A stretch of DNA of 35,655 nt, taken from contig CAYRSI010000002.1 in the NCBI GenBank assembly GCA_964426965.1, forward strand, positions 1 to 35,655, read 5' to 3'. Position 1 is the first letter of the stretch. Each line of letters begins with the position of its first letter. Below, in pieces: positions 22,310-24,448 of this stretch. The position numbers and the translations under genes were made by a program. The notes beneath the pieces are model-generated. The model did not search any database and had not been told where the DNA came from. It saw only the letters and a list, made by a program, of their open reading frames with translations. The stretch comes from an uncultured Candidatus Saccharibacteria bacterium. GTDB lineage: Bacteria > Patescibacteriota > Minisyncoccia > RBG-13-40-8-A > JAUWHN01.

Positions 22310-24448
22310 TTATTTTCTCACCTCCCAACCCCTCCTTTTGCTCGCTTCTCTAATAATCTTATTATGGATTTTATCTACTTCTTTATCAGTTAAGGTTCTA
22401 TCATCGGCTTGATAAACAATATGAAAAGCTAAATTCTTTTTATTTCTCGGAATTTCTCCTCCTTCATACATATCAAATAAATCAACGCCTTGAATCAAGT
22501 CGCCCCCAACACTATTTATCGCATTTAAAACATCGGCTACTCTATCTCCCAAATTCACCAAAATAGCAATATCTCTAACTACGGCCGGATATTTCGAAGG
22601 ATGCTGATAAATCAATTCTTCGCTGATTAGCTTAATTAAAAGCTCAAAATCAATATTAAATACTGCTACCTGGCCTCCTGCCCCGCCGGTTTTTGCAGAA
22701 TTTATCCCAAATTTAGACAAAATCTCTGGATTTATCTCACCAACAAACCCTATTTCTTTACTACTTATTTTTATTTCAGCGCTTCGGCCAGGATGCCAGA
22801 ATATTTTATTGGTCCATTCTGGCGTTGCTTGAAAATCATCGTACCATTGATTAGTTATCCCTAATTTATTTAATAACCCATCGACCATCCCCTTAACCTC
22901 ATAAAACAGCTCTTCTCTGCCCTCTTTCCGCCCCACTATTCCTACCAACATCATTCTTTCTTTGACTGTCGACTTTAAGTATATTTTTCCTATCTCAAAT
23001 AATCGTACCTCGGAAAAGTATTTAAAATTCTCTCTAATATTCTTTAACAAATTAGTAATTAAATCTCGACGAAGGTATTTCAAATCTAAACTTAGGGGAT
23101 TTTCTAATTCTATATAATCCTTTGAGCTTAGTTTAAGTTTTTCCAAGTCATCATCTCCAACAAAAGAATAATTATAGACTTCAGTCATCCCTAAACCATC
23201 TAGAATATCCTTAGCTTTATTTTTTGATCTTAATAAATCATCTGGCTTAGCTAAAACAAGAGTTCCCATGGGTGGCTTTGGCGTAATTTTCTCATAACCA
23301 TAAATTCGACCAATTTCTTCTATCAAATCCTCGGAAATTTCTATATCAAGTCGGCGAGTTGGCACATCAGCAAACAATTGATCGCCTGCTTTTTTAACAT
23401 TAAATCCTAAAGAACTTAAAATTCTAATAATTTCTTTCTCGGGAATCTCTACCCCTAAAACACTCCTTACTTTATCTATCTTCGAAGAGATTTTACAAGG
23501 CTTTATTTTATTAGGATAGATATCAATCATTCCCTTGGTTATCTTTCCGCCACTGTTTTTTTGAATTATCTCCGCCAATCTGTCTATTGCTTCAGAGGCT
23601 AAATTAGGATCCAATCCGTGCTCAAACCGCAAAGAGGATTCCGTAGATATTCCTAATTTCCGAGAACTAGCATGAATGTTATTGAGATTAAAATTAGCTG
23701 ATTCTAAAATAATAGTTTTAGTGTTTTTATCTATTTCTGCTTTAAGTCCTCCCTTTATTCCAGCAATAGCAATTGGATCCTTGCTGTCAGCAATTACCAA
23801 GATATCATTATCTAACTCACACTCTTCGCCGTCTAAAGTAGTAATTTTCTCGCCCTTTTTCGCCCTTCTTATTATTATTTGTTTCTTATTCGCAATTCGT
23901 TTAGATTCGTAATTCGTAGGAACCAACTTGTTGGCATCAAAGGCATGTAATGGCTGCCCCATTTCAAGGGCTACATAATTTGTCGCATCAACTATGTTAT
24001 TTATTGGTTTCTGGCCAACTGCCCTTAATCGTTTTTGCATCCACTGGGAGGAAGGACCAACTTTTATATCAGTTATTACTCGAGCAGTATATCTGGGACA
24101 CAGCTCGGCATCTTTCACCTCCACACCTACAAAATCTTCAACTTTTAACTTTTTGTCTTCAGTTACTTTGGACTTTGCCTGCCTGCCCGCTTCGCAGCGA
24201 GGCGAGCCGGCAAGGCAGGGACTTTGGAATTTGGAATTTAGAAGCGCGGCGCACTCTCTAGCCACTCCGATATGACTCAAACAATCGTGAGCTCGATTAG
24301 GTAAAACATCGATATCTAATACATGGTCATTGCCGACCCTTTCTATCCACTCCACCTCAAAACTATGCATGGTCAACAAATCAGCCAATTTTTCTGGTTT
24401 TGGTAAATTTTCAACGTATTCCTTTAACCAATTATAGGAAATTAACAT
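22310..24448 (-). CDS. pheT: Phenylalanyl-tRNA synthetase beta subunit (no N-terminal OB/tRNA-binding domain; carries two repeat-derived inserts)
   Basis: [12 protein letters not shown]...[18 protein letters not shown]...CPRYTARVI...[15 protein letters not shown]... Start taken at 24448. The track start at 24475 lies inside the spacer repeat. Confidence 0.93.
23888..23921. repeat. AT-rich 'attcgNaattcg-n5-attcgtaattcgtagga' module inside the pheT CDS
   Basis: Sense strand CCTACGAATTACGAATCTAAACGAATTGCGAAT compares with spacer copy CCTACGAATTACGAATCAAACACGAATTACGAAT (24488-24522). It encodes [11 protein letters not shown]. Confidence 0.85.
24170..24226. repeat. GC-rich nested palindrome (core 24178-24218) flanked by the direct repeat GGACTTTG, inside the pheT CDS
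   Basis: ggactttg-CCTGCCTGCCCGCTTCGCAGCGAGGCGAGCCGGCAAGGCAG-ggactttg. Confidence 0.88.

Follow-up and report, generated by a model that had tools for sequence, protein, structure and literature searches.

Nested 21-nt palindromic units in frame within pheT of a Saccharibacteria bacterium and their dispersed relatives across bacterial phyla

In the account that Elhai et al. reportedly gave in Genome Research in 2008, the cyanobacterial repeats SDR1-8 are 21-27 nucleotides (nt) long, have hairpin potential, often lie in tandem heptamers, nest within themselves and encode no protein. The same account is said to have deduced recent SDR mobility by comparison, with insertion at the fixed point of a palindrome, and to have found these repeats confined to one cyanobacterial subgroup, the heterocyst-forming one. 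In anatomy, this class is the closest match for the feature described here: two GC-rich palindromic units of 21 nt, one nested in the other, in frame within an essential gene, pheT, which encodes the beta chain of phenylalanyl-tRNA synthetase (PheRS). The gene lies in a 35,655-nt stretch of DNA (hereafter the window; G+C 36%) at the start of contig CAYRSI010000002.1, from an uncultured Candidatus Saccharibacteria bacterium of the Candidate Phyla Radiation (CPR). The 2008 study is cited in PMC3116915, and SDR5 inserts precisely at the fixed point of the HIP1 palindrome (PMC4390886).

Other classes of small repeat share some of these traits. GC-rich palindromes that insert into coding sequence and into each other occur in the AT-rich genomes of fungal mitochondria, as GC clusters or double-hairpin elements and as the byp elements that descend from these. 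Such organellar elements usually measure 30-60 nt, and the ribosome bypasses some of them instead of translating them. MITEs have terminal inverted repeats around a non-palindromic core, lie between target-site duplications and usually span 100-400 bp. Rickettsia palindromic elements (RPEs) were reportedly described by Ogata et al. in 2000. These elements of ~105-146 bp lie in frame in essential protein genes of Rickettsia, where they are tolerated as a surface peptide (PMC3184786), and they carry a CGTC tag at one end (PMC3733652). REPs are GC-rich imperfect palindromes of 20-40 nt, mostly extragenic, with an unpaired GTAG or CGTC at one end (PMC3733652), and MITEs such as Correia, ERIC, Nezha and others are non-autonomous, hairpin-forming repeats that can fuse with open reading frames (ORFs) (PMC3184786). 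A literature search by sequence, repeat-derived peptide and topic, incomplete in its coverage, returned no account of the present units or of in-frame palindromic repeats in CPR.

Anatomy of the insert and its empty sites

On the plus strand, positions 24170-24229 of the window read ggactttg-cctgcctgcc-cgcttcgcagcgaggcgagcc-ggcaaggcagg-gactttgg, in agreement with the nested GC-rich palindrome inside pheT that an original prediction, made from the letters of this DNA, had described. Retrieved loci carry L numbers below and protein homologues P numbers. The gene and the parts of the insert are as follows.

22310..24475, minus strand: pheT (PheRS beta chain), with the insert at residues 86-99
24178..24219, minus strand: composite insert, 42 nt, 14 codons, complete; delimited by filled/empty comparison with orthologue DNA (L001, L004, L005, L006) and an alignment of 40 orthologous proteins
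24178..24187, unstranded: left arm of A' (plus strand CCTGCCTGCC), A' being a 21-nt variant of the 20-nt palindrome CCTGCCTGCCGGCAGGCAGG (A)
24188..24208, plus strand: inner element B (CGCTTCGCAGCGAGGCGAGCC), a net 21 nt in the middle of A'; exactly the 21 nt by which the window exceeds L002, L003 and L289
24209..24219, unstranded: right arm of A' (plus strand GGCAAGGCAGG), with an extra A (coding strand T) that brings the unit to 21 nt
24163..24177, unstranded: heptamer units on one side of the insert, plus strand TTACTTT GGACTTT G, coding strand ...CAAAGTCC AAAGTAA
24220..24243, unstranded: heptamer units on the other side, GACTTTG GAATTTG GAATTTA (TRF period 7, 3.6 copies)

Three other loci (L002/P0008, L003/P0016 and L289/P0058) carry A' alone, as an uninterrupted 21 nt that read CCTGCCTTGCCGGCAGGCAGG on the coding strand, between heptamer units of the same array. 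B together with the CC that precedes it forms a 23-nt family consensus, CCCGCTTCGC[A/C]GCGAGGCGAGCC, drawn from 124 metagenome copies. The 57-nt stretch folds on either strand into a single long interrupted hairpin, with a DNA energy of -15 to -16 kcal/mol (z -2.2 to -3.0) and -28.7 kcal/mol for the mRNA strand. Read from the sequence, A and B hold no stop codon in any of the six frames. We consider this identity and anatomy of the feature very likely.

The boundaries follow from orthologous pheT DNA, which was retrieved via the proteins and read at the site on the coding strand. Orthologues without the insert have a tandem heptamer array at this position: TTAAAGTCC AAAGTCC AAAGTCC AAAGTCC AAAGTAA in L004, AAAGTCC AAAGTCC AAAGTTC AAAGCCC AAAGTAA in L006, and (CAAGTTA)x4 in L001. 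The window reads AAATTCC AAATTCC AAAGTCC [42 nt] AAAGTCC AAAGTAA, that is, five units, as in L004. The direct repeat GGACTTTG at 24170-24177 and 24219-24226, whose second copy shares its first G with the palindrome, had been taken for an 8-bp target-site duplication. This does not survive the comparison: the empty sites L004 and L006 already carry (AAAGTCC)n heptamers and the unit count of L004 equals that of the window, so the repeat represents two adjacent units of an array that predates the insert. Nor does the insert measure 41 + 8 = 49 nt, a length that had seemed at odds with the reading frame; it is 21 + 21 = 42 nt (24178-24219), and the frame problem disappears. The protein segment between the GVA and CPRY blocks, modally 39 amino acids (aa) in 50 of 68 scored orthologues, is 53 aa in the window PheT and either 46 (+7) or 53 aa (+14) in carriers of A'. 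Thus the extra length that had been noticed is real, but it amounts to 14 aa against the closest orthologues and not to the ~17 aa suggested against E. coli PheT.

Only four of 120 PheT homologues carry A' (P0001, P0008, P0016 and P0058), with pairwise identities among them of 56-72% by BLASTP and 65-75% when aligned globally. The closest listed relative of each is without A' (P0002 for P0001, 78%; P0006 for P0008, 91%; P0022 for P0016, 87%; P0066 for P0058, 92%), and the check by orthologue alignment that had been proposed at the outset accordingly found the segment missing from close orthologues, not shared among them. In the best filled/empty pair, L002/L005, whose proteins are 91-94% identical, the difference is a clean 21 nt with three nearby substitutions and no duplication. 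The frame in which A' is read also varies, giving PALPAGR in P0008 versus CLAGRQ in the other three carriers. Together, the A'-free closest relatives and the other reading frame of P0008 point to recurrent insertion. A' is identical at 21 of 21 positions across the four lineages, in which the 180 nt of flanking coding sequence are 63-77% identical; at that divergence, 21 bases would stay unchanged with a probability of 7e-5 to 4e-3 per pair. In P0066, the nearest relative of the carrier P0058, the identical junction is occupied by another GC-rich nested palindrome, of different sequence (CCGCCAAAGGCGAGGCTCGCCACAGGCGG). All five pheT inserts preserve the frame, four of them being 21 or 42 nt long, and decayed A-like copies occur elsewhere in the pheT loci of the relatives. 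As far as sequence comparison can tell, these patterns fit repeated, recent and independent insertion into a hot spot in pheT, and they are a poor fit for a single old insertion that was later lost, precisely, many times over.

The same identity of 21 nt in four lineages could instead reflect an old, selected PheT segment or cis-regulatory hairpin, conserved by function and lost in most relatives; a further copy of A in the window, at 5942, also abuts a likely ribosome-binding site. Set against this are the lack of A' in 116 of 120 orthologues, each carrier's closest listed relative included, its two reading frames, the presence of the same sequence in unrelated genes, intergenic DNA and unrelated phyla, and the predicted disorder of the residues concerned. 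We regard the old-segment explanation as largely refuted and highly improbable. Since perfect palindromes are typical of some library linkers, one might suspect that the insert is such a linker or some other artefact of assembly or library preparation. We give this practically no credence: four independent data sets (the window, Logan SRR30965929, ENA ERZ778604 and JGI 3300032070) agree in placing the frame-preserving 21-nt variant at one site, decayed and nested variants exist, and the unit occurs in genomes of cultured isolates, some on megabase contigs.

In an AlphaFold2 model of PheT built on 52 homologues (mean pLDDT 85), residues 83-105 form coil, and pLDDT drops under 50 over residues 91-100, at the insert. 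The insert site aligns with the variable linker after domain B1 of solved PheRS structures. Structure mapping, another of the checks first proposed, therefore puts the insert in a surface linker predicted to be unstructured, its 14 additional residues lying in what is predicted to be a disordered surface loop. Two more inserts specific to the window PheT, near residues 190 and 597, are likewise low-confidence loops in the model. A length of exactly 21 nt per unit, freedom from stop codons in six frames and a predicted disordered loop would together explain the persistence of the units, and for the same reasons they are most likely translated, judging by frame and length as a neutral extension of the loop.

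The protein has other peculiarities. The window PheT is without the B2 / tRNA-binding OB-fold domain (residues 10-44 correspond to 1-35, and 49-709 to 156-786, of 2rhq_B), and PF01588 is not listed for it or for the PheT homologues. An NlpC/P60 peptidase domain (PF00877) is inserted in homologues P0015-P0017, P0021, P0022, P0028, P0029, P0033, P0034, P0042 and P0099, which are ~800-860 aa long; two of these also have PF05708. Eight homologues (P0009, P0011, P0012, P0016, P0020, P0022, P0028 and P0033) contain a 5-aa N-terminal insert with altered flanks, EV(R/Q)L(P/S/L)(T/S)G(K/R)(L/S)DF, which, read from the proteins alone, has the look of another palindromic unit.

Dispersal and settings of the two units

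Within the window, recurrence of the arm CCTGCCTGCC exceeds chance, as originally claimed (6 matches with at most one mismatch against 1.0 expected; none of 100 shuffles reached 6), and the 23-nt CCGCTTCGCNGCGAGGCGAGCCG matches exactly twice (12271 and 24187) against 0.00 expected. The wider search that had been called for revealed many further copies. In a scan of one genome per species (596 Gb) with the pattern CCTGCC(N0-1)TGCCGGCAGGCAGG, A was found in at least 120 loci, compared with a chance expectation of ~0.5 for the 20-mer plus ~1 more for the 21-mer (about 0.5-1.6 overall). Hosts among the matches listed include, within CPR, Parcubacteria, Saccharibacteria, WWE3, Daviesbacteria, Uhrbacteria, Doudnabacteria, Wolfebacteria and Adlerbacteria and, outside it, Omnitrophota, Planctomycetota, Gamma- and Deltaproteobacteria, Bdellovibrionales, Chloroflexi, Thermodesulfovibrio and Bacteroidota. 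The last of these groups includes cultured organisms (Winogradskyella echinorum KCTC 22026, Flagellimonas yonaguniensis, Longitalea luteola and a Flavivirga strain), and some matches in cultured isolates sit on megabase contigs. No cyanobacterium appears among the host names of 80 of the at least 120 A loci. Flanks of A are unrelated between loci, base composition is at background directly outside the 20 nt, and nothing is conserved around the unit.

B was found in at least 120 metagenome loci (124 copies), again with unrelated flanks; 98% of copies have CC before the unit, at positions -2/-1, and at the centre 63 have A and 57 have C. Viral contigs contain A in 42 stretches, some with 3-4 copies, and gave no match for B, which suggests one possible vehicle for A. 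We considered whether the units might be specific to CPR and rejected this, as Bacteroidota, Omnitrophota, Planctomycetota, Proteobacteria and other phyla share the identical units, with A also in viral contigs. It is well supported that the units are non-coding, ultra-small members of dispersed families, A/A' of 20/21 nt and B of 21-23 nt. Such a cross-phylum distribution of ultra-small palindromic repeats is unexpected, and it suggests that the units may move between phyla.

Copies of A lie in long open frames in 21% of cases, compared with 69% of random positions in the same loci (binomial p ~1e-28); the units are thus mainly intergenic. Where A does fall within genes, Pfam domains continue through it in one frame, as seen for FtsK (L020), dTDP-sugar dehydratase (L030), GatB (L122, the copy lying within the GatB_N domain), MurB (L031) and TrmD (L042). 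The 21-nt variant is enriched among ORF-internal copies (6 of 13 versus 20 of 112, p = 0.03). Unit A also occurs inside tRNA-like sequence, in the D-arm region, in L024 (4041), L049 (2127), L102 (67), L117 (5992) and L040 (3628). Disruption of tRNAs by A was considered and rejected: with A removed, ARAGORN recovered no convincing tRNA, the L040 case being doubtful and that of L102 lying at a contig end. The L102 sequence is an otherwise intact-looking tRNA-Arg(TCT), cut by the end of the contig.

These settings bear on the idea that the units are removed or skipped at the RNA level, as introns are or by translational bypass as in yeast mitochondria, so that the insert would be missing from the PheT protein. 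The great stability of the mRNA hairpin (-28.7 kcal/mol) and the 20-nt copies in tRNA-like sequences (L024, L049, L102 and L117) would suit it. The idea is difficult to reconcile with the frame of the inserts, kept in five of five pheT cases, with the enrichment of the 21-nt variant in ORFs and with the domains that run through A; deletion of A restores no detectable tRNAs, and no Rfam family matches at the region. On the frame evidence, we judge RNA-level removal very unlikely.

Tandem heptamers and palindrome centres stand out among the sites that the units occupy. When flanks are rejoined, 9.2% of A sites show period 7, compared with 0.2% of controls (p = 1e-13), at lag 7 only. Flanks of B show no period-7 enrichment, and B associates with palindrome centres. 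Flanking inverted repeats of at least 6 nt accompany 4-5% of copies against 0.6-0.7%, a 6-8x enrichment for both A and B. Direct repeats do not flank the units in general: those of at least 6 nt border 7% of A copies, essentially the array cases. By inspection, A and B also occur in the loops of other palindromes and inside themselves (L027 and L054; L184 and L185), and B sits at the centre of A-like arms in ~17 of 124 copies, forming composites of the pheT type.

The association with arrays raises the question of whether homologous recombination or gene conversion alone, acting between dispersed heptamer arrays that already bear copies and whose units supply the flanking homology, could spread the units with no insertion activity at all. 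Heptamer arrays are indeed common and dispersed in the window, every pheT copy lies in an array, and there is no duplication. However, ~90% of A copies have no period-7 flanks, the arrays that do bear A differ in their unit between loci (TGACCTT, TCTAAAA, AATTACG, CCTCACC), and copies also lie in palindrome centres and in unique coding sequence. Because copies exist outside arrays, an entry step independent of homology would still be required. Gene conversion between arrays could aid local spread, leaving the ~90% of copies outside arrays unexplained; as the whole account, array recombination seems unlikely.

How do the units compare with the described classes? Set against the SDR repeats by description, A and B agree in unit size, hairpin potential, embedding in heptamers and self-nesting with what is reported of that class; they differ in occurring in many phyla, in the presence of A in viral contigs and in copies that lie in frame inside essential genes. 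The likeness to RPEs that was first proposed holds as a functional analogy, in that the pheT insert is an in-frame palindromic insertion between conserved protein flanks that is tolerated. Membership among RPEs, in contrast, fails on size (20-23 nt for A and B, 42 nt for the composite), on the end tag (no CGTC on either strand) and on host, which for A and B crosses phyla. With REP and REPIN elements the units share short GC-rich palindromes and, for A, a mainly extragenic location (21% vs 69%), but neither consensus contains GTAG or CGTC, and the CC before B is the only conserved feature of the flanks; identity with tagged REPs was rejected for want of a GTAG/CGTC head in A or B. Identity with MITEs was rejected as well, since the whole unit is a palindrome of 20-23 nt, and filled and empty sites differ by exactly 21 or 42 nt with no duplication. 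The GC clusters of fungal mitochondria are similar GC-rich mini-palindromes to which A and B are not known to be related in sequence.

How the units may spread

The boundaries of the units are precise, no duplication accompanies them, insertion at the pheT hot spot recurs, the units nest, and their sequences are common across phyla. With moderate confidence, we favour the explanation that A and B are dispersed mini-palindromes that inserted in the pheT array and that spread as hairpins through a trans-acting or generic function. The units entered a short tandem heptamer array in the B1-B3 linker of PheT, without target-site duplication. In the window lineage A' probably came first, with B then entering the centre of A'; alternatively, the A'::B composite might have arrived as a single piece. 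Spread would proceed by way of DNA hairpins that enter transiently single-stranded or extruded DNA, and the likely places of entry would be slipped tandem-repeat junctions, the apex of other palindromes and the units' own centre. Structure-specific cleavage and rejoining by a trans-acting or generic host function, not by an enzyme that the units encode, would accomplish this. The insertion chemistry is a guess.

Several considerations weigh against this explanation. Ancestral presence followed by many precise losses is conceivable, and movement is deduced from comparative presence and absence, mostly in metagenome assemblies. We know of no enzyme whose specificity would fit a letter-perfect 20-mer across phyla. 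A tblastn search for a mobilising enzyme with Y1 transposase sequences (IS608 TnpA and E. coli RAYT) gave one match, L014 1261-1608, in 2.06 Mb around 290 loci. In addition, B has no strand bias, which argues against replication-coupled single-strand transposition of the IS200/IS605 type. The L014 match, IS200/IS605-like, lies ~1.5 kb from an A copy in a Chitinophagaceae metagenome-assembled genome.

A classical route is nevertheless conceivable, in which REP/REPIN-type elements are moved as single-stranded hairpins by a HUH tyrosine transposase (RAYT or IS200/IS605 TnpA) encoded elsewhere. GC-rich palindromes of 20-40 nt without target duplication would be expected of it, the invariant 5' CC of B could be a target or cleavage motif, and some REP families insert in small palindromes and in genes (PMC3733652). 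Yet neither A nor B has a GTAG or CGTC tag, and B lies on the same strand as local genes in 31 cases and on the opposite strand in 30 (15:13 within ORFs). The single Y1 match is a further point against it, although a weak test, and REP families are species-specific or found in several species (PMC3733652), whereas here one 20-mer occurs in many phyla. We view the REP/RAYT or IS200/IS605 route as possible but not favoured, and on balance unlikely.

A broader possibility is more tentative. A, B and related hairpins (TCCGCC..GGCGGA and others) might be members of a pan-bacterial class of ~20-nt hairpins with no gene or lineage-specific transposase of their own, spread by generic processing of DNA structure and, for A, possibly by phages. 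Together with heptamer arrays, such hairpins might account for a large share of the loop insertions in proteins of small AT-rich genomes, CPR genomes among them.

As candidate mobile DNA, A and B would be among the smallest and most widely distributed. If they are mobile, their 20-23 nt would lie at the lower size limit of mobile DNA, with a host range far beyond that of any described REP, RPE or SDR family. Many short, lineage-specific insertions that trouble protein alignment and annotation in CPR/Patescibacteria would then have a concrete origin, and the units may also account for repeat-derived peptides in hypothetical proteins. The association with both heptamer arrays and palindrome centres joins two poorly understood features of bacterial genomes. 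Cultured carriers among the Bacteroidota (such as W. echinorum KCTC 22026 and F. yonaguniensis) make mobility, and the enzyme involved, testable in the laboratory.

Further copies and repeats in the window

Beyond pheT, the window contains the following related features.

5942..5961, unstranded: canonical 20-nt A, a perfect palindrome, at the junction of the nusB 3' end and the rnc 5' end
12230..12300, minus strand: three-layer GC-rich composite (SVYGSPRGEAGGPSCPAGRQAVGRD) in the miaA part of a miaB-miaA ORF; outer arms CCGGCCTACGG / CCGTAGACGG enclose an A variant and B
12241..12261, unstranded: 21-nt A variant (CCTGCCTGCCGGCAGG-A-CAGG) in miaA
12270..12292, plus strand: second B copy (CCCGCTTCGCCGCGAGGCGAGCC, centre base C) in miaA
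12098..12113, unstranded: mini-palindrome TCCGCCAGCTGGCGGA, read NPPAGGG in miaA, a peptide that is patchy among MiaA homologues
6788-6819, 7824-7887, 7965-7988, 15242-15287, 24219-24243, 24459-24487 and 26937-26960: tandem heptamer arrays, most in intergenic spacers

The original prediction had placed the copies at 5942-5961 and 12231-12300 in coding sequence, which holds for the second. The first is confined to the nusB ORF's final 12 codons, 8 nt upstream of where rnc probably starts, which makes it effectively a gene-junction copy. The 3' end of unit A plus AAA (5934-5961) supplies an AGGA Shine-Dalgarno-like motif ~8 nt upstream of an internal ATG (5934-5932). This ATG is likely the true rnc start, and the copy may have been co-opted into a ribosome-binding site.

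Neither the nearest MiaA homologue (P0121, 78%) nor the majority of 120 homologues has the composite at 12230-12300. In P0122 the site is taken by an A-like peptide (GGPACLAGRRAS), and in other homologues by different repeat-derived peptides; those of P0142, P0148 and P0151 (VILAKAGIH...DSC, VIPAQAGIH..DPRFRGDD and HPELDSGSRLG..VKPGMT) come from other widespread repeat families. Unit A was itself found inserted within one such family (GTCATTGCGAGGAGCG^...CGACGAAGCAATC; loci L062 924 and L106 2392). NPPAGGG occupies its site in roughly a quarter of MiaA homologues. Its 16-nt source TCCGCCAGCTGGCGGA is present exactly in 7 of 127 sequences (the window and L001-L126; 0.94 Mb), L018, L024, L025, L044 and L052 among them. 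It has 55 matches in viral contigs, from which no conclusion is drawn, since at a length of 16 nt a sizeable number of matches may arise by chance. TCCGCC-N3/4-GGCGGA hairpins related to it occur at 30047-30082 of the window and in L092, L103 and L121. In the window, miaB and miaA are fused as a 691-aa ORF (11858..13933), an arrangement that L004 shares (630 aa; UPF0004, Radical_SAM and IPPT domains).

Comparison of syntenic loci identified further window-specific GC-rich inserts of 21 and 24 nt in miaB (13301-13321 and 13748-13768) and pheT (22673-22696). Those in miaB, 21 nt each, read LSCGKAG and PVKGADS; with ~15 of 20 positions matching, the insert at 13301-13321 may be a decayed copy of A'. 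An Rfam scan of the window found three tRNAs only and no family at the insert region.

Period-7 arrays are common in the window, accounting for 12 of 43 TRF rows, and GGAATTT-like arrays lie at 7871-7954 and 26899. They resemble the heptamer repeats of Nostoc and Calothrix, and heptameric repeats are over-represented in bacteria (PMC4692102). An AT-rich 33-nt insert in pheT (23888-23920) is a heptamer array of the CGAATTA type that only P0002 shares, and units of this type also form a perfect 24-nt palindrome (CGAATTACGAATATTCGTAATTCG) in the pheS-pheT spacer (24476-24499). Finally, a 13-nt tandem repeat, ACAAAACTACAGA x 5.1 with 100% matches, occupies 9254-9319, between the ORFs at 8432..9229 and 9434..9997.

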